64,000 nt of DNA, taken from a virus. The position numbers were made by a program, and so were the translations under genes. How positions within the stretch are numbered: the stretch's first letter is position 1; the number at the start of each line of letters is the position of its first letter. The DNA is taken from IMG/VR virus record IMGVR_UViG_3300042945_003044; one strand, 5' to 3'. Positions 1-19,336 of the stretch are shown here, piece by piece. The notes below the pieces were generated by a model. The model was not told the origin of the DNA and did not search any database. It was given only the letters and a program-made list of their open reading frames with translations.

Positions 1-151
1 GCTCGCTGAAAGCCTTGATTTCCCCAGCCTTCACGTTCGCGTGAACGTCGCCAGGGAGCGAATCGGTCAGGCACGAACGAATCGAAGAAACAACCTCGTC
101 ACGATCCAGTTCATCGGCAACAATATCGACCACAAAACTAAACTTCTTCAT
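1..151 (-). CDS. hypothetical protein, 5' part only (MKKFSFVVDIVADELD...), runs off window
   Basis: ATG at 151 with upstream GAAAGGG SD; TTGACA-N17-TAAGAT promoter at ~194-222; frame open to window edge. Confidence 0.6.
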   Translation of the reverse strand, partial: MKKFSFVVDIVADELDRDEVVSSIRSCLTDSLPGDVHANVKAGEIKAFSE

Positions 152-352
152 TTGTAAACCCTTTCCAAAAGTGTTATCGAACCAAGTAAACCAATCTTAC
201 CTAATGAATCATCACTTGTCAAGAGTCTGCCAGATGGTTTCTATTGTTGGCATCTGCTGTCGTCTTGTCGTGTGATGCTATCAGTATACTATAGTTATCG
301 GCACTGTCAACCCCGTTCGTGAATCATTTTTGAGATTTTCAAAGATTTGTTC

Positions 353-430
353 TAAGTCCTTGGAGCATAAGAAGTTACGTCAAGCCGGGCCGGCCCTGTT
401 TGCCGTAAGTGCTTACAGCATAAGGGTTTA
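353..430. repeat. 78-bp double-palindrome element copy 1
   Basis: TAAGTCCTT-ggagcat-AAGAAGTTA, 28-bp linker, TAAGTGCTT-acagcat-AAGGGTTTA. Confidence 0.95.
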
Positions 431-432
431 GG

Positions 433-804
433 TTATGAGAGAAATCCCTGACAACCCAAAGCCACAAGATCACGCAGCAACTTTTCAGCCGCTGCCGGTG
501 TGGGCAGGGTCACGCTGTTACGACCCTTGCCGTTGATATAACGACAAGCGTTGTAATCATACGCACCCATCAGTTCATCGCTCCAATCCTTCGACTCCTT
601 CAAGCCCCATCCGGTAGCAAGCCGAATAGCCTTGATGGAAGCGATCCGGTTGTCGGTAGTCATTCCGCCGGTAATGGTCACCGTTCGGTGCTGGTTCACA
701 CCCAAAGCAATCTCAAAAGCGTTCACGATCCGCTCGTAAATATCCAGATTGCAGTTAGTCGCAAGATTCATAGCCTCACGAACCGTCAGTTCCAACTTAA
801 TCAT
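433..804 (-). CDS. ribosomal protein L7/L12 C-terminal-like domain protein
   Basis: RIASIKAIRLATGWGLKESKD matches the L7/L12 CTD motif KIxxIKxxRxxTGxGLKEAK. Confidence 0.75.
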   Translation of the reverse strand: MIKLELTVREAMNLATNCNLDIYERIVNAFEIALGVNQHRTVTITGGMTTDNRIASIKAIRLATGWGLKESKDWSDELMGAYDYNACRYINGKGRNSVTLPTPAAAEKLLRDLVALGCQGFLS

Positions 805-805
805 C

Positions 806-1219
806 TCAAATCCTTTCTTCCAAAACGTAAACTTGCTTGCCTTGTGTAATTAAAGTAGCGTATTCGCTATCGTCCCAAATAAACTCGTTGCTATCACTTT
901 CTCGTCGCCAGTGTGGGTCACGAATCGGATTATAGTATACCTTTTCAAGATTGTCAACAGGCAAATCCTTGCGAAGCATCACTTCCTCACACTTTACCCA
1001 TCCACTAACATCATGCACACCAGCCTCAAATACCTGTTTAGCCTTATTCGGTCTGTTCCACAATATACAACCCCTCATTTCCAACTGATATTCTTTGGGG
1101 TCGTAATAGTATACATCAACAGTTTTTCCACCTTGTTTAACCTTAACTTGCCAATGCATATAATGATCCCCTTGGCTAAGATGGAATCTAACTTCGGCGT
1201 GTAGTGGTTTCGGTTTCAT
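806..1219 (-). CDS. hypothetical phage protein (start revised to MKPKP, probably leaderless)
   Basis: TTGACA-N17-TATAGT promoter lies inside the longer ORF call; ATG is 6 nt after the -10 box. Confidence 0.7.
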   Translation of the reverse strand: MKPKPLHAEVRFHLSQGDHYMHWQVKVKQGGKTVDVYYYDPKEYQLEMRGCILWNRPNKAKQVFEAGVHDVSGWVKCEEVMLRKDLPVDNLEKVYYNPIRDPHWRRESDSNEFIWDDSEYATLITQGKQVYVLEERI

Positions 1220-1259
1220 ACTTATACTATACCTTATCGGCCAAATCTTGTCAAGTCCT

Positions 1260-1655
1260 TTAGAATTTATTTGTAAAATCTTTCGAGATGCCCATCTGCT
1301 CTTGCACATCGCTATCTGTTAGCACGTCCTCGTCCATCATAAAATCCATATCATCAAAAAAGATTTCAATATCAACTTCCCCATTGGGATTAAAAAGCCA
1401 AGCAAAATTCATGATCATAAAATATGCCGTAGCCTGAACCCAAGATTCCACCTCTCCGGAATGCAGTTCGATAGTATTGCGGTTTTGGTAGACATACTCT
1501 ATGGCAGCCCGCTTAGTATCGCTGTTCATATTATTCCAAACAGGAATATCAAACTTATTTAGTTCGCTAAACAGACTCCCGTCAACAGACCACTCATTCT
1601 TATATGTATTATAAGTTTCTTCGATCATCCCAACAGCAATAGCACGACACTGCAT
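1260..1655 (-). CDS. hypothetical protein, acidic C-terminus
   Basis: 131-aa ORF with AGGAG SD. Confidence 0.7.
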   Translation of the reverse strand: MQCRAIAVGMIEETYNTYKNEWSVDGSLFSELNKFDIPVWNNMNSDTKRAAIEYVYQNRNTIELHSGEVESWVQATAYFMIMNFAWLFNPNGEVDIEIFFDDMDFMMDEDVLTDSDVQEQMGISKDFTNKF

Positions 1656-1674
1656 AATATACTCCTATTGTTCA

Positions 1675-1718
1675 CTGACTACAGCCACACCAGCCAAATC
1701 CGAAGGATTAGGTCAGAC
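1675..1718 (-). repeat. ~44-bp hairpin-containing repeat, copy A (copy B at 4807-4850)
   Basis: ctgactacagccacaccagccaaatccgaaggattagg vs ctgactacacccacaccgcccaaatccgaaggattagg. Confidence 0.85.
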
Positions 1719-1867
1719 AGATAGATTGGGTTATGCCATACTCGGCCTTGCATTTAACCGCGGCTTCTTTGATATCATTCTGCCAACGGCCCTCATCTAT
1801 CGCCTGTATCTAAGTGTACATCTATTATCGGGTCTTGTCAAGAGAATTCTTTAGAAGAAAATTTCAA

Positions 1868-1940
1868 TAGGAGCGGTGGGACTCGAACCCACACTGGAAG
1901 GATTTTAAGTCCTTTGACTCTGCCATTGGTCTACGCTCCC
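1868..1940 (-). tRNA. trnL: tRNA-Leu(UAA), short variable loop, CCA not encoded
   Basis: Cloverleaf: GGGAGCG/CGCTCCT acceptor stem, AAGGA-CTTAAAA-TCCTT anticodon arm, GTGGG-TTCGAGT-CCCAC T arm; own TTGACA-N17-TATGAT promoter at ~1951-1979. Confidence 0.92.
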
Positions 1941-1998
1941 GAGTCGGTCTATCATACTATGATATTCGTCATTTGTCAACCGATTCTTTAATTTTTCC

Positions 1999-2076
1999 TA
2001 AGTCCTTTCGGGATAACGACTTACGATGAACGCGGCCCGCCCGATTTGCTCTAAGTGCTTTGGTAATCAGGAGTTA
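1999..2076. repeat. 78-bp double-palindrome element copy 2
   Basis: TAAGTCCTT-tcgggat-AACGACTTA ... TAAGTGCTT-tggtaat-CAGGAGTTA. Confidence 0.95.
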
Positions 2077-2192
2077 CCGATATACCACCAATGGCATCGT
2101 TGGCAAAACAACCAAATAATACCATTATGGTCGTATTTCCACACCAGATTATCACACGCGCCACACGGGCAAATATCACTAAGAGTTTTCAT
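2067..2192 (-). CDS. 41-aa Cys-rich micro-protein, putative zinc ribbon (not in ORF track)
   Basis: MKTLSDICPCGACDNLVWKYDHNGIIWLFCQRCHWWYIGNS*; overlaps the upstream gene end; stop lies inside element copy 2. Confidence 0.55.
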   Translation of the reverse strand: MKTLSDICPCGACDNLVWKYDHNGIIWLFCQRCHWWYIGNS

Positions 2193-2352
2193 AAACTAAC
2201 TTCACATACTTGTCCACAAGTTCGGATACTGCGATCTCATGAGTAGAAATAAGTTCTTTAACTTGGCTCACATTATGCTTATTTACAGCGGCCATTCTAT
2301 TTCTGAAAAAACTCAGAATATAAACCATAGCCTTATCTCTATCCTCAGTCAT
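2179..2352 (-). CDS. hypothetical protein (start revised to MTEDRD)
   Basis: ATG overlaps the end of the upstream gene; GAGGGG SD. Confidence 0.6.
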   Translation of the reverse strand: MTEDRDKAMVYILSFFRNRMAAVNKHNVSQVKELISTHEIAVSELVDKYVKLVYENS

Positions 2353-2662
2353 ACAACCCTCTAGTATATTCTTCTGGAATAATTGGACACCAACTCTTAG
2401 CCCGTTCCTCATCGTATGGAAGCCAGAACGGAGCATCACAAGCGTCACAAGTCCACGGTTTGGCTTGGTTGGTAAAAACGTGCTGGCAAATCTCTATCTC
2501 TTTATCTACAACCTTTTCATTATTTTCATTATAATAGTATGTTTCAATCTTGCGATCTGGATGATAAGAATAGTGACCAATCCCTATACCAATATTGGGA
2601 CCAAAGTAATAAACCCTCTGCCCAACAGCAGGCGGATTCTTATGAGAGTTATTCCACTCCAT
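2345..2662 (-). CDS. hypothetical protein
   Basis: 105-aa ORF, GGAGTAGG SD, operonic spacing. Confidence 0.7.
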   Translation of the reverse strand: MEWNNSHKNPPAVGQRVYYFGPNIGIGIGHYSYHPDRKIETYYYNENNEKVVDKEIEICQHVFTNQAKPWTCDACDAPFWLPYDEERAKSWCPIIPEEYTRGLYD

Positions 2663-2665
2663 TAT

Positions 2666-2890
2666 TTACCTACTCCTTCCAACAATCACACATTTCATAC
2701 TAATATCACTATCAGTATACTTAACACACTCATGAGGTCCATAATACCACTTATCTTCATCGTTCACATTCAATACAATATCCTCAGTTCTCAGGCTAAG
2801 GTCATTAAACCCACCCTCATAACCGAGAGTAAGAACCCGCATATCGGACGGATAGTTCTTCAACTGCTCAATAAGTTCGTTAACGGTCAT
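2666..2890 (-). CDS. hypothetical phage protein (MTVNELIEQL...)
   Basis: Common phage MTVxELIxxL N-terminus; TAATG coupling to upstream micro-ORF. Confidence 0.7.
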   Translation of the reverse strand: MTVNELIEQLKNYPSDMRVLTLGYEGGFNDLSLRTEDIVLNVNDEDKWYYGPHECVKYTDSDISMKCVIVGRSR

Positions 2891-3006
2891 TATTTCCACC
2901 TAAAAGTAAATTTAGTAGCCTCATTATCACAAACGAAAGTGAAGTATGCTAGAAAGAACATGGTCAAAGACGGGAAAAATAGAATTATCTTACGAAAGAT
3001 TCTCAT
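2890..3006 (-). CDS. 38-aa hydrophobic micro-protein
   Basis: MRIFRKIILFFPSLTMFFLAYFTFVCDNEATKFTFRWK*; tightly packed between neighbours. Confidence 0.5.
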   Translation of the reverse strand: MRIFRKIILFFPSLTMFFLAYFTFVCDNEATKFTFRWK

Positions 3007-3008
3007 GC

Positions 3009-3146
3009 TTAGTCCTCAGTAGCATCATCAATATACCACTCGTATCCTAGTTCGTCAATAGTATCTTCTAATACTTCAATAATATCATCAGCATCTTCAG
3101 AATCTAGATCAATTCCCGGTATATCAAAAACAACATAAACCTTCAT
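3009..3146 (-). CDS. 45-aa highly acidic micro-protein
   Basis: MKVYVVFDIPGIDLDSEDADDIIEVLEDTIDELGYEWYIDDATED*; AAGGA SD. Confidence 0.65.
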   Translation of the reverse strand: MKVYVVFDIPGIDLDSEDADDIIEVLEDTIDELGYEWYIDDATED

Positions 3147-3164
3147 TTCATTTTCCTTGTATTA

Positions 3165-3556
3165 AAACCAGCGGAACCATTTACGATCCGGTTCCTATAG
3201 CCCACACCTATAACTTTCAAGGTTTGGAAACCGCCCACGCTGCTTCACTGCTTTCGGGTACCTAATATCAGGCAGTTTATCAGAGGCAACGGTTACTGGT
3301 TGTATTGGTCGTGGTGAGGATGCTATCCCCCATAGATTGGCATTACTATACAACGTATAAGCCCGTTGTCAACCCCGGCGATTGCTTCGCTGAACGGGAG
3401 GTTTATCGTAATGGCTTATCCCAACCTAGTCCCTGAGCATGGACCCACGAAAGTTTGTATTGTTAGGACCGATTGTAGAAGACGTTTCCTAGGACATCAA
3501 TTACCGCTTTTACCGGCTACTCGGCCCGACATAACCAACAAGCGTTTGCTTGTTCT
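3165..3556 (-). ncRNA. candidate large structured non-coding RNA
   Basis: ~400 nt with no credible sense ORF, downstream of a TTGACA-N16-TAGAAT promoter; several stems (ACAAGC/GCTTGT, CCCGTT/AACGGG enclosing GCGA/TCGC, GGGGAT/ATCCTC, GGAACC/GGTTCC). Confidence 0.45.
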
Positions 3557-3586
3557 TTCATCATTCTACTATCTATTATCGGCTTG

Positions 3587-3886
3587 TCAAGAGGGTTTCT
3601 TTAAAAATTTTTTGATGACGAAAAACGCAACTAACCCAAAGCCCAACAGTACAAGAGATGAAGGCTCTGGCACAGGATTGATAGGGGTATGATCCTTAAG
3701 AACCGCATTATAAAACAAATACAAGGCTTGACCACCATCATTATAAACATACAAAGAGTCGTACTCGGTTTGTATGAGTCTATCTGTAGTAAAATCAGAA
3801 TATAGACTATATGGGTCTGAATACCAAGTACCGGTGTTTATCCACACCCCATTCTCATACCCGTATCCATACAGAGGATAATCCAT
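3587..3886 (-). CDS. PEP-CTERM sorting-signal protein (start revised, probably leaderless)
   Basis: C-terminal VPEPSSLVLLGFGLVAFFVIKKFLKK is PEP + TM + basic tail; the TTG 'start' at 3922 is the -35 box of TTGACA-N17-TATAAT. Confidence 0.8.
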   Translation of the reverse strand: MDYPLYGYGYENGVWINTGTWYSDPYSLYSDFTTDRLIQTEYDSLYVYNDGGQALYLFYNAVLKDHTPINPVPEPSSLVLLGFGLVAFFVIKKFLKKPS

Positions 3887-3950
3887 GCTTGCCATTATAT
3901 AATGTATCGTCGGTTTTGTCAATCACTCTTTAAAAAATATTTTTGTGATG

Positions 3951-4028
3951 TAAGTCGTTGTGATATAAGCACTTGCGACGAGCGGGGCAGCGCAAACTCG
4001 CCCTAAGTCCCCTTGGGCAAAGAACTTA
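3951..4028. repeat. 78-bp double-palindrome element copy 3
   Basis: TAAGTCGTT-gtgatat-AAGCACTTG ... TAAGTCCCC-ttgggca-AAGAACTTA. Confidence 0.95.
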
Positions 4029-4041
4029 GAGCGAGCCGCGT

Positions 4042-4524
4042 TCAGATACCGGCTTCTTCTGGATCGTCTTTGAAGAATTCAGCCATATCAAACTCATTCC
4101 ACAACGCAACAGGAATCATATCCTTACTAGGATAGTCCACATAATTATCAGCACCATTATCCCAAATACCGCAAAAGGCAATACCCGGTTCCCAATAACT
4201 AGCCTTCACATTATATCCCAACTCTACCAGTTTGTCATACAAGCCAACAGGAGGACTCCACGCACTATCAAAAGAACAATTTACTTCATTACCAACCCTA
4301 GTGGCCTTCAGCCCATGTCTCTCCTCTTTATCTGTACCAATATCCGCCCCAATATCCCACTTAGTTCCCCAATTATCTATTTGCCAACTATACCAATCTT
4401 CTCCTTCTGGCAGAGGCAAAAACTCCGCACAGGCCTTACCTAAATTATAGGCTTTCTCAAAACGATCAACCATAGCAGAATCAGTATGCTCAACAGTCAA
4501 TTTGTTCAAACACCAATTTGGCAT
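4042..4524 (-). CDS. DUF1281/YubB-like ferredoxin-fold protein
   Basis: Motifs MPNWCxN, WYxWxxxNWGTKWD, FDSAWSPP, YWEPGxxFCG. Confidence 0.8.
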   Translation of the reverse strand: MPNWCLNKLTVEHTDSAMVDRFEKAYNLGKACAEFLPLPEGEDWYSWQIDNWGTKWDIGADIGTDKEERHGLKATRVGNEVNCSFDSAWSPPVGLYDKLVELGYNVKASYWEPGIAFCGIWDNGADNYVDYPSKDMIPVALWNEFDMAEFFKDDPEEAGI

Positions 4525-4535
4525 TGCCGGTATCC

Positions 4536-4742
4536 TTAGTTATTGGAAGGGGTCACAGAGTTCTCACACTTTTCAATAATTTTGCTCATAATAAACTTAT
4601 GAAACAGACTCTCTACTGCAAAAATAGAATCGGCTCTAACAGAAACAGGTACATCCCTCATTTCAGTAATACCAACAATAGTTTCGGTAAAAGCACTAAT
4701 ATCCTGAGCAATCAGATCATACTCTGTAGATACGGCTTGCAT
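4536..4742 (-). CDS. hypothetical protein
   Basis: AGGAGG SD; TTGACA-N17-TAAACT promoter upstream. Confidence 0.7.
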   Translation of the reverse strand: MQAVSTEYDLIAQDISAFTETIVGITEMRDVPVSVRADSIFAVESLFHKFIMSKIIEKCENSVTPSNN

Positions 4743-4806
4743 AGCAGCCTCCTTTTGATACAGTTTACACTAACTATTATCGACTGTCAAGACCACATAA
4801 CTTTTG

Positions 4807-4850
4807 CTGACTACACCCACACCGCCCAAATCCGAAGGATTAGGTGTGAC
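4807..4850 (-). repeat. ~44-bp hairpin-containing repeat, copy B
   Basis: Near-identical to 1675-1718; overlaps the stop codon of 4840-5007. Confidence 0.85.
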
Positions 4851-5007
4851 CAACTAACAGACTTCTCTCTATCCTTGTGTTAGACCCGAATTTTTCAAAC
4901 GCTTTTCGTAATGCGTCAATTTCACTTGGAGATATGACGTATCCTACAAACTTATTATCTTTGAACACTATCCAAGATTGTCCAATGCTATGGTCTTGTG
5001 TTTGCAT
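4840..5007 (-). CDS. 55-aa micro-protein, probably leaderless (not in ORF track)
   Basis: MQTQDHSIGQSWIVFKDNKFVGYVISPSEIDALRKAFEKFG...; ATG 6 nt after TAGAAT; resembles 9872-10063. Confidence 0.65.
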   Translation of the reverse strand: MQTQDHSIGQSWIVFKDNKFVGYVISPSEIDALRKAFEKFGSNTRIERSLLVGHT

Positions 5008-5062
5008 GTTTTGATTCTACAAGTTATTATCGGTTTGTCAATAGAGAAAACTTTATTTGTCG

Positions 5063-5140
5063 TAAAGCATTTGGAGACAAGTACTTATGTCGAATTTTGC
5101 GGCGCCCCTCGGCCCTAAGTGCTGCCGTAGCAACAACTTA
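5063..5140. repeat. 78-bp double-palindrome element copy 4
   Basis: TAAAGCATT-tggagac-AAGTACTTA ... TAAGTGCTG-ccgtagc-AACAACTTA. Confidence 0.95.
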
Positions 5141-5175
5141 GGGTGAGGGTTTCACCGATTGGCGAAGAAGACAGT

Positions 5176-5580
5176 TTAGATAAGGTGAGCCAGACCCGTA
5201 GCAAAGAGAGCCTGAGCCCCAACCGGCTTGCGGCACTTTTCAGTACGCTCCGCATAGAAGTTGCGAACCGTACCATTGGGCATTTCGCAAGTCACAAGGT
5301 GGCGAGTACGCTGAAACTCGGGATCATTCGCACGATAGCGACTGCGAGCATTCAGCCTACGAATAGAGTAGTCATCCAGAGTGTGGACTTCCACAACCTT
5401 TGCCAGATAACGCTCCGGCTCGCCCTGCAACGGCTGCTTATAGATGAAGTTGTAGATTTCACCCGGCTTAGCAGACGCGAGCGTACCACGAACACCACCA
5501 TAAACAGCATAGGCAAGAGCAGCAATCAGAACAGCAGTAACACCAGCCAGAATACCACCAAACAGAAGAACATCGTTCAT
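5176..5580 (-). CDS. membrane-anchored hypothetical protein
   Basis: N-terminal TM helix (VLLFGGILAGVTAVLIAALAYAVY); GAAAGGG SD before MNDV; alternative start at 5616. Confidence 0.7.
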   Translation of the reverse strand: MNDVLLFGGILAGVTAVLIAALAYAVYGGVRGTLASAKPGEIYNFIYKQPLQGEPERYLAKVVEVHTLDDYSIRRLNARSRYRANDPEFQRTRHLVTCEMPNGTVRNFYAERTEKCRKPVGAQALFATGLAHLI

Positions 5581-5647
5581 AAAAACCCTTTCAGTTAGAA
5601 AACCCTCAATCAACATACCACAAGTCTACACTATGTATCGACTCTTG

Positions 5648-5884
5648 TCAAGCCTCAACATTAGAAAAATTTTCGGTCCAAAACTCTTTGAGTTCGTCCA
5701 GATCAATTCCGCTATCGTTCCACGCCACATTATCTAAAGTTTCAATAGAGCCCATCTCTCGCATTTGTTCTACGAAATCCGAATAATCGTCACAACTTCT
5801 AGCAAGGTTATATAAACCCTCGTCGTTTGCAATCCAGAGTTGAACGTTCCATGTCTGATAGTTTTTGCAGCCGTTGTAAGTCAT
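5648..5884 (-). CDS. hypothetical phage protein (YNGxxNYxTWNVxLW type)
   Basis: Motif typical of small phage proteins; GAAAGGG SD before MTYNG. Confidence 0.75.
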   Translation of the reverse strand: MTYNGCKNYQTWNVQLWIANDEGLYNLARSCDDYSDFVEQMREMGSIETLDNVAWNDSGIDLDELKEFWTENFSNVEA

Positions 5885-5967
5885 CTTTTTCCCTTTCGTG
5901 TGTGCCGTAATCATACCATATAGATCGGCAAATGCAAGAGGAAATCTTTAGAAAAATTTTTTAGACG

Positions 5968-6045
5968 TAAAGCGTTGTAGCATAAGTAGTTACGTCGAGG
6001 CCGGCGGCGCCCGCTCGCCCTAAGTGCTTATGCACAAAGGGTTTG
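5968..6045. repeat. 78-bp double-palindrome element copy 5
   Basis: TAAAGCGTT-gtagcat-AAGTAGTTA ... TAAGTGCTT-atgcaca-AAGGGTTTG. Confidence 0.95.
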
Positions 6046-6055
6046 CGGAGAGCTT

Positions 6056-6292
6056 TTATTCGAAGTCTACGAAAATTACTTGATTGTAGCCGCGAGGCTT
6101 AATCTTGAAACTATCGCCATAATCTTCGGTTTCTGCCTTTACGCCCGTAAACCCGGCCAATTCCTTAGCCTTCTTCACAATGCTACGCTGCGAAGCGTCA
6201 CGCTTGGGAATAAACTCGTAACGGTTTACCCAGCCGTAGTTAGCCTCGCCACCAAAAAGATCCGTATGGGTCACAACGCACTTCATGCTCAA
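6056..6292 (-). CDS. hypothetical phage protein (TDxFGGEANYxWVxR motif)
   Basis: AAGGAG SD; plausible small phage protein. Confidence 0.7.
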   Translation of the reverse strand: MSMKCVVTHTDLFGGEANYGWVNRYEFIPKRDASQRSIVKKAKELAGFTGVKAETEDYGDSFKIKPRGYNQVIFVDFE

Positions 6293-6297
6293 TCTCC

Positions 6298-6501
6298 TTA
6301 CAGGCTCACGGTTTCAGAACGAAAAGAACACACACTTAGGCCACTAGCAGCCACAACAGTATCCAACATATCACCGATCAGTTCTGCTCTTTCCATAGCA
6401 GTTGACGTATCGCGATCAGCAACTTCCAACACAAACTCTTGGTCGATTGACTGTTCGCCATTCTCGTTTTCAACCACAATATCAAAGAAGCGGTACTTCA
6501 T
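6298..6501 (-). CDS. acidic hypothetical protein
   Basis: GAGG SD; promoter at ~6528-6556. Confidence 0.7.
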   Translation of the reverse strand: MKYRFFDIVVENENGEQSIDQEFVLEVADRDTSTAMERAELIGDMLDTVVAASGLSVCSFRSETVSL

Positions 6502-6585
6502 ATGATCCTCTCTTTCAGATATAGACTAGTTTATACTACTAAGATCGGCTTGTCAAGCGGTTATCTTGAAAAAATTTTTTTGATG

Positions 6586-6663
6586 CAAACCCTTATGAGA
6601 TAACGAGTTAGGACAAATTTTCGCCGCCCGCCTCGTCCTAAGTCCTTTGGTGGTAAGGATTTG
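6586..6663. repeat. 78-bp double-palindrome element copy 6
   Basis: CAAACCCTT-atgagat-AACGAGTTA ... TAAGTCCTT-tggtggt-AAGGATTTG. Confidence 0.95.
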
Positions 6664-6670
6664 TGTCGAA

Positions 6671-6925
6671 TTATTCTCCGCCGTAATAATCTTCGCCTAG
6701 CGGGGTGTCATCACCATAATATCCATAATCCTCATCGGTTCCCCATCCTGCGGAAGCGAGGCCACTCTCATGATCCCCATCCATACTATCATCATACGAA
6801 TCATCCCAACTGTTCTCCAATTCATCCGCGTCAACTTCCCCGTAGTGAAAATCGTTGTAATCGTCGTAGTTCATATCGTCCTCGCAAGAGTTATCGGGAT
6901 CATAGCACGGGTCAGGATGGCTCAT
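6671..6925 (-). CDS. extremely acidic D/Y-rich protein
   Basis: 84 aa, many D/E, no K/R; contains SMDGDHESGLASAGWGTDEDYG; GAGG SD and own promoter. Confidence 0.75.
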   Translation of the reverse strand: MSHPDPCYDPDNSCEDDMNYDDYNDFHYGEVDADELENSWDDSYDDSMDGDHESGLASAGWGTDEDYGYYGDDTPLGEDYYGGE

Positions 6926-6987
6926 TTCTTTTTCCTCTTTACTAGTGTTATCGGGATTCTATCCTAAAAACTTTAGGCTGTCAAGCC

Positions 6988-7185
6988 CTATTCCACAATC
7001 CACGTTTCGCCGTTTTCATCCATCATCTCGACAGGGGCAAAATCATCCACACAACCCACAACATCTGCCCAATCCCAAAAGTTGACTTCCACGCCGGGGT
7101 CGTCAATAGGCTCGACCATAGGCTCAATCGTACCGTCTTGGGCCATTTGATCCAGAATCAAGTTGATTTCTTCGAAAGAATACAT
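6988..7185 (-). CDS. acidic hypothetical protein (start revised to MYSFEE)
   Basis: The longer ORF call runs through a promoter and element copy 7; AAGGA SD before ATG 7185. Confidence 0.7.
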   Translation of the reverse strand: MYSFEEINLILDQMAQDGTIEPMVEPIDDPGVEVNFWDWADVVGCVDDFAPVEMMDENGETWIVE

Positions 7186-7290
7186 TTTTGACTTCCTTTG
7201 GGGTTTCACTTGTGATACTCGAATTATACATAGTATATCGGCCAAGTCAATAGCGTATCTATAAAAAATCCAAAAAAAATTTTGTTGATG

Positions 7291-7368
7291 TAAAGTGTTG
7301 CAGTATAAGGAGTTACGACGCGGCGGGCGGCGCGGCCTCGCCCTAAGTCGTTTAGCGACAAGGCTTTG
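7291..7368. repeat. 78-bp double-palindrome element copy 7
   Basis: TAAAGTGTT-gcagtat-AAGGAGTTA ... TAAGTCGTT-tagcgac-AAGGCTTTG. Confidence 0.95.
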
Positions 7369-7370
7369 CG

Positions 7371-7682
7371 TCAATTTCCTACGACCATGCCATCCATAAA
7401 AGGATAGGATTTGTCGTTGATTTTCACAAACCATTCAAAATTCTTTTGATACACATAACGTGGGCTATACTGGTTGATACGATCCTTAGTGGTCAGAGTT
7501 TGCCAGCCGCCACTATTCAGCGTATAGGTACCATCTTCGTGAATCTTGACCACATAGGTACTGTGCAGCATAATCCCAACCGAGCCATCATGCAGAATTT
7601 CCGCATAGGTATTATTACCAACCTTGCGACGAGTAGCATTACGCTTGCCGCGAACCATAGTAACCGCTTCGGCGTGTGTCAT
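7371..7682 (-). CDS. hypothetical phage protein (LNSGGWxTxTTKxRIN motif)
   Basis: Motif typical of phage early proteins; AAGGG SD. Confidence 0.75.
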   Translation of the reverse strand: MTHAEAVTMVRGKRNATRRKVGNNTYAEILHDGSVGIMLHSTYVVKIHEDGTYTLNSGGWQTLTTKDRINQYSPRYVYQKNFEWFVKINDKSYPFMDGMVVGN

Positions 7683-7741
7683 TTTGTTTTCCCTTAGTGT
7701 TTATTGATACGATTAGGATTTTACTAGATAAACTTTATTTG

Positions 7742-8029
7742 TCAAGCACTATTTCTACGCATATCATTATCCTGACCAAGAGCGGAGAAGTTGACCATAT
7801 CGGTACTTGAAGAAAGATTTTCGATCTGCTCCAGAACCTCAGCAACACCAGAAAAGTCTAGCCAGCCGATAACATTATTCGTGACAGGAGTGGTATAGTC
7901 GAGATCGCCATCTTTACCAATAACAGCAACCTCGAAAAGCCCATTCTTTCCACCATATGACCCAAGATGAGAAACCACACTAGCCCCATAACCATTATCA
8001 AACTTATAGATTTTTTGATAGTTAGACAT
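7742..8029 (-). CDS. hypothetical phage protein (FxNGYGASV...GLFEVAV motif)
   Basis: Motif typical of phage early proteins. Confidence 0.75.
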   Translation of the reverse strand: MSNYQKIYKFDNGYGASVVSHLGSYGGKNGLFEVAVIGKDGDLDYTTPVTNNVIGWLDFSGVAEVLEQIENLSSSTDMVNFSALGQDNDMRRNSA

Positions 8030-8162
8030 TTTTCTTTTCCTTCATTTCCTTATAAAGTTTTTCCAGAAACTTGACTTGAGCCAAAGCACGGCATGTTTCC
8101 TGCTTCATTCTGGCTTCTGTTTTCTGAAATCCGCTTACTGGCTTCTTCTTCGTTTTCATCAT
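8022..8162 (-). CDS. small basic protein (start revised to MMKTKKK)
   Basis: AGGAG SD; the TTG of the longer call is the -35 box. Confidence 0.6.
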   Translation of the reverse strand: MMKTKKKPVSGFQKTEARMKQETCRALAQVKFLEKLYKEMKEKKNV

Positions 8163-8239
8163 CTTTCTCCTACACTCGATTGTATAGTATAGATCGGCAA
8201 GAGTCAAGCATAATCTTTAGAGGATTTTTATTTTGTTCG

Positions 8240-8317
8240 TAAAGTATTGCCGCATAAGGAGTTACGTCGAGCGGGGCGGCGCCGGCTCGCTCTAAGTCTT
8301 TTAGCAGTAAGGGTTTA
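8240..8317. repeat. 78-bp double-palindrome element copy 8
   Basis: TAAAGTATT-gccgcat-AAGGAGTTA ... TAAGTCTTT-tagcagt-AAGGGTTTA. Confidence 0.95.
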
Positions 8318-8346
8318 GGTTCAGTTTTTTGTTCAGTGGTGAACGA

Positions 8347-8688
8347 TTATTCATCGCTCCCCTTGAACGCAAACGGTGAAACTTCCTCATCACAAGCCAG
8401 AATCGCACCATATTGGTGAGCAAGAGCCTCAACCCGTTCCTTTGAACCCGGCTTTCCAGCCTTTACGATCATGGTATCCTCACCACCCACAAATCGCGGA
8501 TCGGACTTCTCTTTCTTCACTTTGCCAAGGTTGCGAAGTGCCTTGCGGTTGAACTTCAAAACCTTTTCACTCTTGATCGGCCCATACTCACCATCCGCAA
8601 GAGAGGGTTGGTGGGGAATCGCAATCCCGAGAAAGCACATACGAGCCTGTTTCTTAGCGTTTTCGATAATCTCAAATTTCTGTTTCAT
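8347..8688 (-). CDS. hypothetical protein (start revised to MKQKF)
   Basis: GAAAGGG SD; promoter at ~8712-8741. Confidence 0.7.
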   Translation of the reverse strand: MKQKFEIIENAKKQARMCFLGIAIPHQPSLADGEYGPIKSEKVLKFNRKALRNLGKVKKEKSDPRFVGGEDTMIVKAGKPGSKERVEALAHQYGAILACDEEVSPFAFKGSDE

Positions 8689-8744
8689 GTTTTCCCTTTC
8701 GTGTTGGTCTGATTCTAGCAAAACTCTTTGGTGAGTGTCAAGCC

Positions 8745-8933
8745 CTACTTTGAATAATTGTAGGCATCCAAACCCAACTTGCGACGAATCACGCGAATCG
8801 TTTCCAGATCCTCAATGAGCATCTTGGTCAGATTCTCACTTACTCCGCTTTCCACCAGAGAAGCCATATTTTGCTCACTGGTTTTCAGCAGAGCAGCCAC
8901 AACGATTTCTTCACTCACAGTCAACTTTTCCAT
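8745..8933 (-). CDS. hypothetical protein
   Basis: Own TTGACG-N17-TAGAAT promoter. Confidence 0.65.
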   Translation of the reverse strand: MEKLTVSEEIVVAALLKTSEQNMASLVESGVSENLTKMLIEDLETIRVIRRKLGLDAYNYSK

Positions 8934-9009
8934 CTTTCACTCTCTCTTTCTGTACCAACTATTCTACCAAACTTTTCCCGCCTCGTCAACCCCTATTTCG
9001 GGGGAAGCC

Positions 9010-9219
9010 TTAGATTTTCCAGTGTGAAAACTTCAGCGTGAACACCTGATTAGGATACTTGCTAGCGATATACGCTTGTGCAGTTTCCTTCCGATTGTCG
9101 GAAGCCGAAACACCCTGAACAACCGTACCGTTGATAATCACACTCCACACACGACGCTTACGAATCTTCGGGAGGCTAGCAATCAAACCGTTCACACTCA
9201 TAACCTTTTCCATCATCAA
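9010..9219 (-). CDS. small basic hypothetical protein
   Basis: Own TTGACT-N17-TATAAT promoter. Confidence 0.65.
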   Translation of the reverse strand: MMMEKVMSVNGLIASLPKIRKRRVWSVIINGTVVQGVSASDNRKETAQAYIASKYPNQVFTLKFSHWKI

Positions 9220-9304
9220 CTCTCTCTTTCTTTCTTATGCTGAATTATACCTTAATTATCGTCAAAAGTCAAATGGAATCTTTAGAAAATTCTCGGATTT
9301 TCCC

Positions 9305-9466
9305 TAAGTCCTTATTTGGCCTAGAGTTGCGCCGACCCGCTTCGTTTAGGTAGCACAGTGGACAGATGGTATCGTGAGAAATCGCTCGTAAAGCGTTGCT
9401 ATCAAACAACTTACGGCAAATTTTGCGGCGCCGGCTCGCCCTAAGTCTTTATGTGTCAACCACTTA
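9305..9466. repeat. 78-bp element copy 9 (9389-9466) plus an extra degenerate single palindrome (9305-9329)
   Basis: TAAAGCGTT-gctatca-AACAACTTA ... TAAGTCTTT-atgtgtc-AACCACTTA; extra TAAGTCCTT-atttggc-CTAGAGTTG starts 84 bp earlier. Confidence 0.9.
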
Positions 9467-9668
9467 GGTTAAGAGTTAATCACCCAAGCAACCACACAAC
9501 CGAAAGCAAAGGATACAGAAAGCACTACCTTATCGTAAAGATTCATTATTTCTTCCTTACTGGAAAAACAAGATCACAAACAAACCAAGAACAACCAATA
9601 CCAACAACAAATCCCACACCCATCCACATCCAATCTATATTTAGATCGACCATCCCTGATTCCTTTCT

Positions 9669-9890
9669 TTAATCCTTTTTATATCCTACGAGCCACCTAG
9701 TACCATCCTCATCCGTACGAATAAATCCATCGGATTCAAACCCTGCGTCACTCAATTCCTTTTCGGCCATTCGCTTCACTATAGTATCACCTACAGCCAG
9801 GACAGCACAAACCACGCCCATGATAACTATACCAACCATAAACAGGAAAATCATCGTGATTAGTTCAGGACTCATTTGGTAAGATTCCAA
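9669..9890 (-). CDS. small membrane protein
   Basis: Single hydrophobic TM segment. Confidence 0.65.
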   Translation of the reverse strand: MESYQMSPELITMIFLFMVGIVIMGVVCAVLAVGDTIVKRMAEKELSDAGFESDGFIRTDEDGTRWLVGYKKD

Positions 9891-10063
9891 GTATAGACGT
9901 TATCGTTCACCTTTACGCATCTTACATCAGAGATCGGCAAATGTCCAGTACGAACATTAGAGCAATCTGGAAAGAACTCTCGCACAATCTTATATGCTTC
10001 AAGCGTATTCTTAGCACGAACGAAACCAACAGCCGAACCATTCTGATAAACTTCCAAAGTCAT
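9872..10063 (-). CDS. small hypothetical protein (MTLEVYQNG...)
   Basis: GAGG SD; promoter at ~10094-10122. Confidence 0.65.
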   Translation of the reverse strand: MTLEVYQNGSAVGFVRAKNTLEAYKIVREFFPDCSNVRTGHLPISDVRCVKVNDNVYTWNLTK

Positions 10064-10164
10064 CTTCTTTTCCTCTTTCTTTCTCATACCATTATTCTAC
10101 ACTACTAATATCGGCTTGTCAAGCCTAGCCACATGAATTTTTTCAGATTTTTTATTTTGCGTTG

Positions 10165-10242
10165 TAAGTCTATATGTAGCATATACTTACGTCGAATTTC
10201 GCGGCGCCGGCTCGCCCTAAGTGCTTACGCAGCAACTACTTA
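10165..10242. repeat. 78-bp double-palindrome element copy 10
   Basis: TAAGTCTAT-atgtagc-ATATACTTA ... TAAGTGCTT-acgcagc-AACTACTTA. Confidence 0.95.
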
Positions 10243-10678
10243 CGTTTACTATTCATATCCTTAAGAATAGCAACAATCATAGCCAATTCGTTACTCGTCT
10301 GATTCGGATTCATCATATTCCCTTTCATCTTCTTCGAGCCAATCAGCATAATCATACAGTGGGTCAGGGCAACTCATCTCTTTTCTCCTTTACTTCTTAT
10401 ATCGGTATTATACAGGAAAATCTTTAGGGGTCAATACTGAACATTTGTTTTTTCTAGAATAGAATCTAAATGAATTTCCCCATTCTCTACAACCCACCCA
10501 TATTCCTTAGTAGGTGTATACGTCCCAAGATAATATTTCCCATCACTATATCCCTCGTATCCAACCCCAAATCCCATGAACGTGATAGCCAAAATCATAT
10601 CGTACATTATAGCCTCTCTTTCTTATACATACAATATCGGCTAATCCCCATACATACTTTAGAGATATTTATTGGTCA

Positions 10679-10756
10679 TAAACCCTTACTGCATAAGTAC
10701 TTAGGACAAATTTTGCGGCGCCGGCTCGCCGTAAGTCCTTTATTCACAACACCTTA
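10679..10756. repeat. 78-bp double-palindrome element copy 11
   Basis: TAAACCCTT-actgcat-AAGTACTTA ... TAAGTCCTT-tattcac-AACACCTTA; the terminal TTA is the stop codon of 10754-10951. Confidence 0.95.
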
Positions 10757-10951
10757 CGATGCGTGAACAAACACTTCCTTAGAGGGTTGGCCTACTGAAC
10801 AAATGGTCACAAGCCAATTCTTCCCACTACCATCTTCAGGCCGAATACCATTCACAAGCCCCTTAACAGGCTTACAGTCGTGATTCACAAGAATAATCTC
10901 ACGACGAGTACGCATAGATTCCACAATCCAATTCAAAGAATAGACGCTCAT
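10754..10951 (-). CDS. small hypothetical protein
   Basis: 65 aa, AGGG SD. Confidence 0.65.
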   Translation of the reverse strand: MSVYSLNWIVESMRTRREIILVNHDCKPVKGLVNGIRPEDGSGKNWLVTICSVGQPSKEVFVHAS

Positions 10952-11001
10952 TTGTTTCCCTAAGTTATCTTATGCCTAATCGATCAATACTATACAAACG
11001 T

Positions 11002-11151
11002 TTAGAGGATCGTACCATCACCACGAATACGATACATGATACCACCGATACTATACAGGCTAATACCCTCGCCCATATGCTGAACAAACGTAGCCGAGTA
11101 ACCGTGTCGAGCAACCAACCTGCGAATCGTATTTTGCACTTGGATTGTCAT
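11002..11151 (-). CDS. 49-aa micro-protein (not in ORF track)
   Basis: MTIQVQNTIRRLVARHGYSATF...; AAGGA SD; TTGACA-N18-TATAAT promoter. Confidence 0.6.
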   Translation of the reverse strand: MTIQVQNTIRRLVARHGYSATFVQHMGEGISLYSIGGIMYRIRGDGTIL

Positions 11152-11210
11152 TTGTTTTCCTTTTCTCTTGTGTTCCTATTATACAGTATCGGTTATGTGT
11201 TTGTCAAGCG

Positions 11211-11357
11211 TTAGTTTTTCATACTCTCAAAAAACTTCTTTACGCTTTCATCATTCATTCTCATATCCTTATTCACAATCGGCATAGCATATGCCTTTTC
11301 ACGAATCTCAAGATTCTTGATTCTCTTACTTGCATTCTTCATAGTCTTATTCATCAT
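11211..11357 (-). CDS. 48-aa basic micro-protein (not in ORF track)
   Basis: MMNKTMKNASKRIKNLEIREKAY...; first gene after element copy 12 and its promoter. Confidence 0.55.
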   Translation of the reverse strand: MMNKTMKNASKRIKNLEIREKAYAMPIVNKDMRMNDESVKKFFESMKN

Positions 11358-11453
11358 CTTCTTTCTCTCTTTCTTTCTTACTTCTTATATCGACATTATA
11401 CCAAAGATTCTTTAAAAGTCAATACTATACAGATGTTTTTTAAAAAATAGACA

Positions 11454-11531
11454 TAAGTTGTTGTCAGATAAGCACTTAGGATCAGTTTTGCGTAGGTAAT
11501 TATGCGTAAGTTGTTGTTCTATATACACTTA
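11454..11531. repeat. 78-bp element copy 12 (array-leading copy, AT-richer linker)
   Basis: TAAGTTGTT-gtcagat-AAGCACTTA ... TAAGTTGTT-gttctat-ATACACTTA; 53-bp period retained. Confidence 0.9.
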
Positions 11532-11646
11532 GGGGGTTTTTTCGTTTTAATCAACCCATTTTCCCCACAGGCAAAAATCCTGGGGTGGTATATACTAAAT
11601 AAGGACCACATAGATCATAATGTAGTACCTAAACTATTAGGATAGC

Positions 11647-12891
11647 CTATAACACCCTTCTGATTCTCTTGTATCCTATAAGCTTAAGCTCTCCCGTTTC
11701 CTTATTTTCTGCTACGACTTTAACCTCATTCCATCCCCTAACAAACATCCTGCGATTTAATCCAACATCAAACCCATGGTATCTGTCGCCCCATTGAACC
11801 AAATTAGCTCTATATCTATTAGCGTCAGTAACCACTACCTCTCTACCATTGATCAGAATCTTGACCCTAACTCTATCATGGATATTTTGAGAATCCAGGC
11901 TCCATCCTCTTACCCTATTAATATTCATTATATCCACAGCGCCCGCTACTCTCTCATTCCAGCTTTTAACCACAATAGGCATTGACGGAGCCACTACTTT
12001 AAAAGAACTTTCCCCCAAGGCCCCCTTAACATTTAAAGATCCGCCCGTTAACACCTTATCTCTTAGACCTTCACTAAAACTCACACTAGAGAATATTTTT
12101 GACCTAATTTCCCCAATACTCATAGACCCATACTTCCTGCATAATGCCGATATGGTTCCGGTTACTTGAGGAGCAGCCATACTAGTTCCACTCAGACTAC
12201 CATATCTATTACCGGGTAGTGTTGAATATACGGCCGTTCCCCTAGCTGCCAAATCCACACTATTTTTTCCATAATTAGAAAACCCCGCTAGAGTCATATT
12301 ATCTGACCCACAAGCTGCCACAGCTATAACATTATCAATATTGTAAGAGCTAGGATATCTAGGTACAGAGTCATTATCCGACCCACTATTTCCTGCAGCA
12401 CTTACAAAAATTATATTTGCCTCATTAGCCCTAGATATGGCCCCCTCTAAAGCACTAGAATATCCAGTGGTCCCACCCCAACTATTATTAATAGCAACCA
12501 CATCCACCCCAAAATTCTTTTTCATCATCACAATATAATCTATAGACCTTATAGCATCGCCCGTAAAACCAAATCCACTATCATCCTGAAATTTTAAAAC
12601 CATTATGGAGACCGCCCCATAACTAGCCACTATTCCACCCACATGAGTACCATGACCGTACCCATCCTGCACCACATTATTATTTCCGCTAAAATTCCAC
12701 CCATAGATATCGTCAACATATCCATTACTATCATCATCAATATTATTGGCCACTATCTCCCCAGGATTTTTCCACAAACTATTTTTTAAAGCTTCATGAT
12801 TAATATCTATTCCACTATCTATAATAGCAACTATTGGAGCTAAAAGAGACCTATTTTCCAGACTTTCTATCCCTAGAGCGCTCTTTTTCAT
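11647..12891 (-). CDS. S8 (subtilisin-family) serine protease with Planctomycete-type LExRxLLA leader
   Basis: Catalytic motifs IIDSG, HGTHVGG, GTSMA; N-terminus LGIESLENRSLLA. Confidence 0.9.
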   Translation of the reverse strand: MKKSALGIESLENRSLLAPIVAIIDSGIDINHEALKNSLWKNPGEIVANNIDDDSNGYVDDIYGWNFSGNNNVVQDGYGHGTHVGGIVASYGAVSIMVLKFQDDSGFGFTGDAIRSIDYIVMMKKNFGVDVVAINNSWGGTTGYSSALEGAISRANEANIIFVSAAGNSGSDNDSVPRYPSSYNIDNVIAVAACGSDNMTLAGFSNYGKNSVDLAARGTAVYSTLPGNRYGSLSGTSMAAPQVTGTISALCRKYGSMSIGEIRSKIFSSVSFSEGLRDKVLTGGSLNVKGALGESSFKVVAPSMPIVVKSWNERVAGAVDIMNINRVRGWSLDSQNIHDRVRVKILINGREVVVTDANRYRANLVQWGDRYHGFDVGLNRRMFVRGWNEVKVVAENKETGELKLIGYKRIRRVL

Positions 12892-13041
12892 AATCGAGTC
12901 CTTTCGTTTTTTTGTGACAATTTTTTGCCAAAGCTCAGCCTACCACAAGAAAAATTGAAGTCAACCGGATTGCTACTACGGGGTGTATATTACTATATTA
13001 CTAATATTAATAACTTTTTTTAGTAGGACAATTTATTATTT

Positions 13042-18182: not shown

Positions 18183-18413
18183 TCAGATATTGACTGATTC
18201 ACTAGTTTCGCCCAAATTGGTCTTATTCTTACTTGGACGACCTCTACTCTTTTTCAGAGCAAGCTTTCGTCTTTGACGACGCACCATAGCGGTACTAACA
18301 TTTTGGCCGGTCATTTGGCTTAACTTAGCGGCCAAAGCCTCATCACATAGCACATTATGGTTATCTTTGATAAAATCTGTTTCGGAATTTGTCCACTTTT
18401 TATAATTAGCCAT
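18183..18413 (-). CDS. small DNA-binding protein (Myb/HTH-like plus AT-hook RGRP)
   Basis: KKWTxxE...LAAKL...VRRQRRKL and KKSRGRPSK. Confidence 0.65.
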   Translation of the reverse strand: MANYKKWTNSETDFIKDNHNVLCDEALAAKLSQMTGQNVSTAMVRRQRRKLALKKSRGRPSKNKTNLGETSESVNI

Positions 18414-18495: not shown

Positions 18496-18705
18496 ATGAG
18501 CTACGAACAACACAATCAAGATCTTCCAATAGTCCCTTCTGTGTTAAAGACCAGGGCTTCAGAAGAATGTGAAGCTAGCGCACAACAAGATTTGGAGTTA
18601 CAAGAAGAAGGCAAATCTATAGCAGAACTATTAAATGAAGAAAAAACAAATACAGAAGAACAACAAGAAGAAAACAAAAATAGTCAAGAAAAAGAGCAAG
18701 AATAA
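18496..18705 (+). CDS. acidic hypothetical protein
   Basis: AAGGAG SD; divergent promoter region. Confidence 0.55.
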   Translation: MSYEQHNQDLPIVPSVLKTRASEECEASAQQDLELQEEGKSIAELLNEEKTNTEEQQEENKNSQEKEQE

Positions 18706-19336
18706 AGACGGCTTACATGGTGTTTCACAAGAAGAATTTTTAAAAGTTTTAGAGAATATAGGCAAAAGACTTGGTCATAAATTTAAATTTGGATATCACA
18801 GCTTCGATGATATGAAACAACAAGCCGCTATCTTTGCACTAGAAGGACTAGAGAGATACGATCATTCTAGGCCACTAGAGAATTTTCTATGGACTCATGT
18901 TAGAAATAGACTATTTAACTATAAACGTAACCATTATCAAAGACCGGATAAGCCGTGTTTAAGTTGTCCATTTTTCGATAAAACATATAAATGCTCCAAT
19001 AATCAGTGTACAGAATTCACTAATAAAAAAGATTGTGAACTATACGCAGCATGGGCTAATAGGAATGAAGCTAAGAAAAATATTATGCAGCCGTCTGGTA
19101 TAGAAGTTGAGGTTCCCACTAGAAATTTATTGGATCCACACAATTTAGTAGCAAACAAAGAAATTGTAGACTTTTTAGACCAGAATATACAAGCAGAGTT
19201 TAGAGAATCATATCTCAAACTCAAACACGGAAACAAAGTATCTAGGCACGATATCTTAAAACTACAATCACACATAGCCGAACTTATGGAGAATAAAGAA
19301 TGGATAAATCAGGACCTAAAAAACGAGGACAATTAA
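18635..19336 (+). CDS. phage sigma70-family (region 2-like) transcription factor with Cys-rich insert
   Basis: DDMKQQAAIFALEGLERYDHSRPLENFLWTHVRNRLFNYKR resembles sigma region 2; five Cys follow. Confidence 0.65.
   Translation: MKKKQIQKNNKKKTKIVKKKSKNKDGLHGVSQEEFLKVLENIGKRLGHKFKFGYHSFDDMKQQAAIFALEGLERYDHSRPLENFLWTHVRNRLFNYKRNHYQRPDKPCLSCPFFDKTYKCSNNQCTEFTNKKDCELYAAWANRNEAKKNIMQPSGIEVEVPTRNLLDPHNLVANKEIVDFLDQNIQAEFRESYLKLKHGNKVSRHDILKLQSHIAELMENKEWINQDLKNEDN

Follow-up and report, generated by a model that had tools for sequence, protein, structure and literature searches.

A geometry-locked 78-bp double dyad in helical register with promoters of the small-gene block in large uncultivated aquatic phages

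The DNA analysed here (64,000 nucleotides from the IMG/VR virus record IMGVR_UViG_3300042945_003044; the whole stretch is called the window) belongs to a tailed phage, with genes for a terminase (22449-24476), a portal protein (24535-26724), a tape measure protein of 2969 amino acids and collagen-like fibres. Between its terminase and the terminases of Bacillus phages, identity is only about 24%. Positions 1-12900 are transcribed on the minus strand and hold about 30 near-consensus sigma-70 promoters (TTGACA-N16-18-TATAAT); promoter-like sites number 60 in this region, against 33 expected. Within it lies an array of small open reading frames (ORFs), on which Pfam and PHROGs were uninformative, and which is punctuated by a repeated 78-bp element made of two palindromes. 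The original prediction, made from the sequence alone, had read this array either as an integron-like system for cassette capture or as a series of in-phase double operators or loading sites for a dimeric protein.

All 12 copies of the element that had been predicted were confirmed. They align without gaps, and each consists of a 9-7-9 palindrome (9-bp arms around a 7-bp core), a 28-bp linker and a second 9-7-9 palindrome, with zero indels. The conservation of the columns is strongly bimodal. Near-invariant are TAA (columns 1-3), TT (8-9), AA (17-18), A21, TTA (23-25) and G27 in the first dyad and linker, and TAAGT (54-58), TT (61-62), AA (70-71) and TT (76-77) in the second dyad; the bases in the 7-bp cores and at two or three inner positions of the arms are almost random. 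The consensus of the 25-bp dyad is cgTAAGTCCTT-N7-AAGGACTTAcg, in which the outer half-sites are 20 bp apart, so that each element contains two TAAGT-N15-ACTTA sites. A position weight matrix (PWM) of the 78-mer gave 12 matches at 49-100 bits over the 64 kb, the next best score being below -23, and the rest of the window thus holds no further copy. A pattern of 21 fixed bases matched 10 times (8 elements, two of them on both strands), compared with 0.00 expected in 100 shuffles. The linker is polar, with the same orientation in copies 1-11, as had been claimed; that of copy 12 is degenerate and AT-rich.

The predicted order on the minus strand, namely gene end, element, promoter and small ORFs, was also borne out. 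The elements lie 0-35 bp past a stop codon, and their nearest palindrome is 19-42 bp ahead of a -35 hexamer. A promoter with at least 10 of the 12 consensus positions is present at 10 of the 12 elements, nine of which have it adjacent, 19-42 bp downstream. All elements and promoters listed here are on the minus strand. Element 1 (353-430) is composed of a distal dyad (406-430), the linker (378-405) and a promoter-proximal dyad (353-377); the ORF at 433-804(-) stops 2 nt before it, and its sigma-70 promoter (283-310, TTGACA-16-TATACT) is 42 bp from the element edge. Element 2 (1999-2076) is separated by 19 bp from its promoter (1951-1979, TTGACA-17-TATGAT), which drives a tRNA-Leu(TAA) gene. 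The promoters of element 3 (3951-4028) and element 4 (5063-5140) follow after gaps of 28 bp (3894-3922, TTGACA-17-TATAAT) and 21 bp (5014-5041, TTGACA-16-TAGAAT), respectively. Element 6 (6586-6663) has its promoter at 6528-6556 (TTGACA-17-TAAACT, gap 29 bp); element 7 (7291-7368), 2 nt behind the stop of the ORF at 7371-7682(-), has one at 7223-7250 (TTGACT-16-TATAAT, gap 40 bp); and element 8 (8240-8317) has one at 8179-8207 (TTGACT-17-TACAAT, gap 32 bp). The promoter of element 10 (10165-10242) is at 10094-10122 (TTGACA-17-TAGAAT, gap 42 bp). Element 12 (11454-11531), with which the array begins when read in the sense of transcription, precedes the promoter at 11395-11422 (TTGACT-16-TATAAT with a TG, gap 31 bp).

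The remaining three elements depart from this scheme in part. Elements 5 (5968-6045) and 11 (10679-10756) are followed by the same promoter module with a weak -35. For element 5 the putative module, recognised from the repeat family D4, is at 5910-5937 (TTGCAT-16-TATGAT, gap 30 bp); for element 11 it is at 10622-10649 (GGGGAT-16-TATAAG, gap 29 bp), with a degenerate -35 and the CTAAAG and CCGATA motifs kept. The first triplet of the distal dyad of element 11 is the TAA stop of the ORF at 10754-10951(-). Element 9 (9389-9466) is linked to the promoter at 9244-9272 (TTGACT-17-TATAAT) through a lone third palindrome (9305-9329), which is 84 bp, or eight helical turns, from the element and 32 bp from the -35 of that promoter.

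The family extends well beyond the window. A scan of related phages revealed about 700 non-redundant copies on well over 100 IMG/VR phage contigs, with the dyads 53 bp apart in more than 97%. The 21-base pattern occurs in at least 119 IMG/VR stretches, several copies in each, on contigs of 4-244 kb. It was also found in 17 stretches from metagenome-assembled or single-amplified genomes (MAGs or SAGs) of lakes and seas, assigned to many phyla, and in the five bins examined the matches were all on single phage-like contigs. The mention of Planctomycetota in the original prediction is without support. The spacing was surveyed with a symmetric PWM of the single palindrome. In 136 loci ascertained by the pattern, successive palindromes were 53 bp apart in 500 cases and 52 bp apart in 7; other short distances were rare. 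An independent set of 80 loci was fetched via a neighbouring protein and is therefore unselected for spacing; its new non-redundant pairs comprised 206 at 53 bp, 3 at 52, 5 at 54 and 2 at 84. The geometry noticed in the window is thus near-invariant throughout the family in both sets.

In three complete genomes of relatives, G001 (153.6 kb, CheckV completeness 100%), G004 (223 kb) and G005 (238 kb, with terminal repeats), the elements are restricted to a single block of small genes of 12-19 kb; the count per genome is 12-19, and a reversed control pattern had 0 matches in the three. G001 is about 93% identical to the window across most of the array, and downstream of its block, on the same strand, are tRNAs and genes of nucleotide metabolism (ThyX, UvdE and others). 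Judging from its promoters and gene content, the block is probably expressed early. ORF clustering showed that the loci have many small early-gene families in common, which suggests one broad uncultivated lineage. Among isolated relatives, no match to the array was obtained by megablast against INPHARED, and the phage sigma factor encoded in the window had no match among isolated phages. A separate observation concerns the Melioribacteraceae chromosome OY782765.1, which contains eight dispersed, near-identical copies of TAAGTTGTTGTATTTTAAATACTTA; these were considered as host copies of the dyad and rejected, being an unrelated chromosomal repeat that matches the pattern by chance.

The element and its adjacent promoter keep a fixed helical register. 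Among 470 elements oriented by their linker, 64% have a sigma-70 promoter (at least 10 of 12 positions) reading away from the arm-1 side, compared with 14% from the other side and 4% in inward-reading controls. When elements are oriented by their promoters, the flanks of the two dyads differ (cC...GGG at the distal and CG...CGwC at the proximal dyad). The gap between element and -35 is quantised, with peaks at 19-21, 29-32, 40-42 and 51-53 bp and empty valleys, and the spacer sequences are dissimilar inside each gap class. The same peaks and valleys were seen in the 206 new elements of the protein-ascertained set. The gaps in the window (19, 21, 28, 29, 29, 30, 31, 32, 32, 40, 42 and 42 bp) fall into the first three classes, and the lone palindrome at 9305 belongs to the 30-bp class with respect to its own promoter. 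The centre of the proximal dyad is accordingly near -68, -79, -89 or -100, and the distal dyad lies another five turns upstream. Conservation of the promoter module itself spans about 70 bp and includes an A5-T5-CTAAAG upstream tract and a (G)CCGATAAT motif within the -35/-10 spacer. This spacer motif, exemplified by the promoters at 10094-10122 and 5014-5041, is found family-wide; its conservation is unusual for a sigma-70 spacer, and it may be a second operator.

Palindromes just past genes call to mind structured RNA, and a role at the mRNA level, whether that of an intrinsic terminator, of a processing site for RNase III or of a stabilising hairpin comparable to promoter-early stem-loop (PeSL) or repetitive extragenic palindromic (REP) units, would agree with the position of the element. 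The sequences, however, carry no trace of selection for pairing in tests of complementarity, folding and covariation, and a hairpin of either RNA or DNA was rejected. In the window, arms of the same copy (about 6 of 9 positions complementary) pair no better than arms of different copies in every pairing topology, and for three topologies the counts of named structures in the alignment gave pairing and covariation scores equal to shuffled values. The RNAalifold consensus energy is about zero (-0.12 kcal/mol), and most single-sequence fold z-scores are unremarkable. Among 464 unique copies, the frequency of Watson-Crick pairs at variable arm positions does not exceed that expected from independent columns, compensatory change is absent, and the mutual information of arm positions is 0.02-0.07 bits; mutual information is strong only for neighbouring bases, at which TAAGT interchanges with TAAAG or TAAAC.

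Other observations point the same way. The stop codon of the upstream ORF is often within the distal dyad (at position 1 in 19 of 140 and at position 24 in 28 of 140), which implies that ribosomes traverse that dyad. No T-run follows the element, terminators on the coding strand (GC-rich hairpin plus U-run) are not systematically located at elements, and Rfam matched only the tRNA-Leu in the window. An RNA-level function is thus scarcely credible. A palindromic consensus without selection for pairing is what would be expected from a symmetric protein reading duplex DNA, and we take the element, judging from these sequence patterns, to act as duplex DNA for a protein rather than as a hairpin.

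Duplex recognition could serve more than one purpose. The main rival to an operator function, which is compatible with it rather than exclusive, is a protein roadblock: a protein bound to the dyads would stop RNA polymerase arriving from the upstream unit and prevent occlusion of the next promoter, and regulation of that promoter would be secondary. Such a site would be akin to the stoperators of mycobacteriophages or to terminators close to promoters. Without exception, the element separates the stop codon that ends one unit from the promoter of the following unit, and it is polar relative to transcription; moreover, hairpin-plus-T terminators in the array are at chance level (9, compared with 9.0 expected in shuffles), so other means of termination would be needed. 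However, a roadblock does not need helical register with the following promoter, and many gene-to-promoter junctions in the array are without an element. We regard the roadblock as a possible but unlikely primary function. Alternatively, some other enzyme might act on DNA at these sites: a phage-encoded nickase or HNH endonuclease, an enzyme that modifies DNA, or a topoisomerase or gyrase that relieves supercoiling. Duplex, sequence-specific sites with a GC-rich centre would suit such an enzyme, as would the torsional stress from strong tandem promoters, and an HNH protein (21102-21374) is conserved in the lineage. Since no enzyme is linked to the sites and the -35 phasing points to RNA polymerase as the partner, this explanation appears improbable.

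The integron-like reading of the original prediction was examined through the exchange of cassettes between relatives. Mosaicism at the cassette level is extreme. In the relative L109, the window cassettes 10243-10678 and 10757-11453 are in swapped order; its elements are hybrids with the joint in the linker, the two halves (each a dyad with its flank) corresponding to different window elements, and the halves of element 10 are found in two different hybrids. The last element of G001 departs from window element 10679 inside the linker. The tRNA-Leu(TAA) gene (1868-1940(-)) forms its own cassette immediately behind element 1999 and the promoter 1979-1951; a 135-bp segment with this promoter and tRNA is missing from the 93%-identical G001, and the junction of the indel is in the proximal dyad of element 1999. 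Among 247 inter-contig pairs of elements that share a flank, 77 are alike on both flanks and 170 on one only. The part of the claim that concerns reshuffled cassettes with junctions inside elements therefore stands.

The mechanism is another matter. If the 9-7-9 unit were the core site of a tyrosine recombinase, with exchange in the 7-bp core, its geometry would fit (inverted arms around an overlap of 6-8 bp), and the arrays of small cassettes, the swapped order in L109 and the 170 one-flank pairs would follow naturally. However, the inferred change points favour neither arms, cores nor linker and are evenly distributed: the linker receives 34% of the mass, equal to its share of the length, and the cores receive 22 of the 170 units, without enrichment. 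The core columns hold 0.03-0.7 bits between copies, and such differences between cores would block exchange by a tyrosine recombinase. Enrichment of breakpoints over the background is modest: similarity is lost across 30% of elements compared with 20% of random 78-bp intervals (about 1.5 times, with a k-mer-anchored control), and the ends of BLAST segments in the window are not enriched in elements. As had been stated, there is no recombinase gene within the 64 kb, and the co-occurring tyrosine recombinase that was looked for in relatives did not appear; PF00589 (Phage_integrase) is absent from the complete G001, G004 and G005 and from the 44%-complete G003, while control genomes were positive, and PF00239 (Resolvase) is absent from the same three complete genomes and one 44%-complete genome. 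Each cassette, besides, has its own promoter. Dedicated site-specific recombination is thus very improbable. The even change points, the divergent cores and the lack of a recombinase suggest homologous recombination similar to that proposed for PeSLs, in which the repeated unit of element and promoter module, about 180 bp long, would serve as a homology patch for the exchange of early-gene cassettes among related phages.

The explanation that we favour, and consider probable, is that the element serves as a double operator phased to the early promoters, which was the second proposal of the original prediction; the lack of arm covariation in the 464 copies, the 53-bp spacing and the register with the promoter speak for it. 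The 78-bp element would be a composite duplex binding site, with two 25-bp dyads five helical turns apart over a GC-rich spacer, and we infer that a sequence-specific protein would bind it as two dimers or as one tetramer. The site directly precedes the UP-like, A/T-rich tract of a host sigma-70 early promoter, and in this fixed register the protein, once bound, would influence RNA polymerase at the adjacent promoter. The likeliest action would be to shut off or modulate early transcription, as phi29 p4 does at paired 6-15-6 inverted repeats; the element may also insulate the promoter from read-through of the upstream unit.

Several points weigh against the double operator. An element or palindrome is upstream of only 10 of the 28 strong minus-strand promoters in the window array. 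These promoters are already near consensus, so that an activator seems needless. Modules of A-tracts with a period of about 10.5 bp, not contact with a protein, could be partly behind the phasing. Single dyads, which were sought in host chromosomes, were absent from the rest of the five MAG bins. Finally, the candidate binders considered below are conserved regardless of the dyad sequence.

Three genes near the arrays are conserved in all relatives examined. In the window they encode a 72-aa helix-turn-helix (HTH) protein with an AT-hook (18198-18413(-)), a phage sigma factor with a sigma-70 region-2-like part (18635-19336(+)), and a 271-aa protein with an HTH and a long coiled coil (19300-20115(+)), the gene of which overlaps that of the sigma factor. 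The small HTH protein is predicted to be a three-helix bundle with a disordered RGRP tail (KPRGRP); its best structural neighbours are the HTH domains of small terminases, Myb and GcrA, with non-significant E-values. No informative fold match was obtained for the coiled-coil protein. The gene of the small HTH protein is 1.5-5 kb from the array in 5 of 5 genomes tested, and at least 320 IMG/VR stretches encode it. However, no member of the trio stands out as the partner that determines specificity, because each is conserved to the same degree whether the phage has TAAGT or TGCCA dyads. The presence or absence of ORF clusters was compared with dyad type as well, but with only three TGCCA-type loci this comparison had no power.

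The TGCCA type refers to L159, L174 and L182, in which another double dyad occupies the same place: CTGCCATTTTGGCAG, a GC-rich linker of 14 nt and again CTGCCATTTTGGCAG, with the dyads 29 bp apart. The recognition sequence thus changes whereas the architecture is kept, which suggests that the functional unit is the arrangement as a whole, from the two dyads with their GC spacer through the UP tract to the promoter. A variant in L180/L181 (11991-19903) has one TAAGT palindrome and a GC-rich linker, followed by a TGCCAAA-N9-TTTGGCA inverted repeat that replaces the second dyad. Many relatives also contain perfect sigma-54-type boxes (TGGCAY-N5-TTGC, often TGGCACGATATTTGCT), at 7-12 per 20 kb compared with 0.025 expected and in 283 distinct copies; they were seen in L177, L182, L151, L191, L095, L122, L159, L174 and L180, for example at L177:10908-10923 and around 14597 in L159. 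Most of them occupy the gap that separates the double dyad from the sigma-70 promoter and are directed away from the promoter, at quantised distances of about 22, 32, 44, 55 and 64 bp. The window has 0 matches to TGGCAY-N5-TTGC, and the domains of sigma-54 and its enhancer-binding proteins (PF00158 and PF04552) are absent from four complete relatives; the reading of the element as a sigma-54 enhancer was rejected on both grounds. A more speculative proposal, to which we give little weight at present, is that interchangeable, geometry-locked upstream modules (TAAGT dyads, TGCCA dyads and TGGCAC-N5-TTGCT boxes), phased to sigma-70 early promoters, build a wrapped nucleoprotein complex on host RNA polymerase in abundant large aquatic phages. 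Such a complex might use host factors, for instance a closed-complex sigma-54 holoenzyme, as insulators or architectural parts.

Some other genes of the array deserve mention. The protein encoded at 6674-6925(-), an 84-aa early protein with an isoelectric point of 4.1 and no Lys or Arg, is a candidate DNA mimic; it is present in 19 of 25 TAAGT-type loci and in 0 of 3 TGCCA-type loci. The most widespread array protein is the 124-aa product of 8350-8721(-), whose Atlas leads, to families of S8 prodomains or inhibitors, are only weak (below 0.9). A subtilisin-like S8 peptidase (11647-12891(-)), 32% identical to proteases of Bacillus phages, borders the array.

Several known systems resemble the element in part. 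The attC sites of integrons are conserved in folded structure rather than in sequence, vary in length, need IntI and accompany promoterless cassettes that are expressed from a common Pc promoter. The arrays described here are similar in their small cassettes and in imperfect palindromic sites with four boxes in two pairs; however, the element is conserved in sequence, has a fixed length of 78 bp, shows no covariation among its copies and no conserved structure, is unaccompanied by an IntI-type recombinase, and is followed by a sigma-70 promoter of its own. At the Fis sites I-III and UP element of rrnB P1, and at class I CRP sites, upstream dyads lie on one helix face at whole-turn spacings. 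The element likewise has dyads upstream of an A/T-rich UP-like tract with spacings that differ by whole turns; its sequence is different, its two dyads are locked 53 bp apart, and it is phage-borne and repeated at near-consensus promoters. The stoperators of L5-type mycobacteriophages, which are temperate, are asymmetric 13-bp sites that occur singly throughout the genome. Like them, the elements would be multicopy binding sites, oriented relative to transcription, in short intergenic gaps near stop codons; the elements, however, are paired dyads limited to the early block.

The nearest functional analogue appears to be protein p4 of phage phi29. This small dimer bends DNA and acts on host RNA polymerase, and its sites 1-4 are located between promoters A2c, A2b and A3; it binds paired imperfect inverted repeats (CTTTTT-15 bp-AAAATG), represses the early promoters and activates the late one (PMC3100819). 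The element shares with these sites the paired inverted repeats, the half-sites 15 bp apart and the position upstream of phage promoters for host RNA polymerase. It differs in consensus, with no CTTTTT/AAAATG half-sites and no A-tract readout motif, and in having a GC-rich 28-bp spacer, the fixed 53-bp distance and 12-19 units per genome, compared with one control region in phi29. In terms of genome evolution the nearest analogue would be the PeSL of T4-type phages, a composite unit that precedes small early genes in a hyperplastic region and is tied to indels, replacements and reshuffling (PMC2839356, PMC4122927). The similarities are a near-consensus sigma-70 early promoter within a repeated unit, small ORFs, a plastic region, and junctions of indels and replacements of close relatives within the unit, with only modest enrichment. 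Whereas the PeSL has a short terminator stem-loop upstream that is defined by structure, the element is a 78-bp double dyad defined by sequence and under no pairing constraint, and it adds a fixed internal geometry and helical phasing to the promoter. When the dyad sequence was sought in the literature, nothing but unrelated primers came up, and no mention of the motif. The finding is real and widespread, and it is apparently undescribed.

For annotation, the lesson is that fixed-geometry palindromes beside cassettes need not be integron-like. The element marks the early-gene region of widespread uncultivated aquatic phages of 150-240 kb and makes it searchable, and its roughly 700 natural variants with strict geometry are a ready mutational data set for the predicted protein-DNA interaction. 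A binder, if found, would reveal a phage early-to-middle switch that works on consensus promoters in helical phase, from positions -70 to -130, and would account for the way in which regulatory modules also serve as recombination patches for the shuffling of host-takeover genes. The modular wrapped complex, if true, would be a previously undescribed way to control and modularise early genes in these phages.

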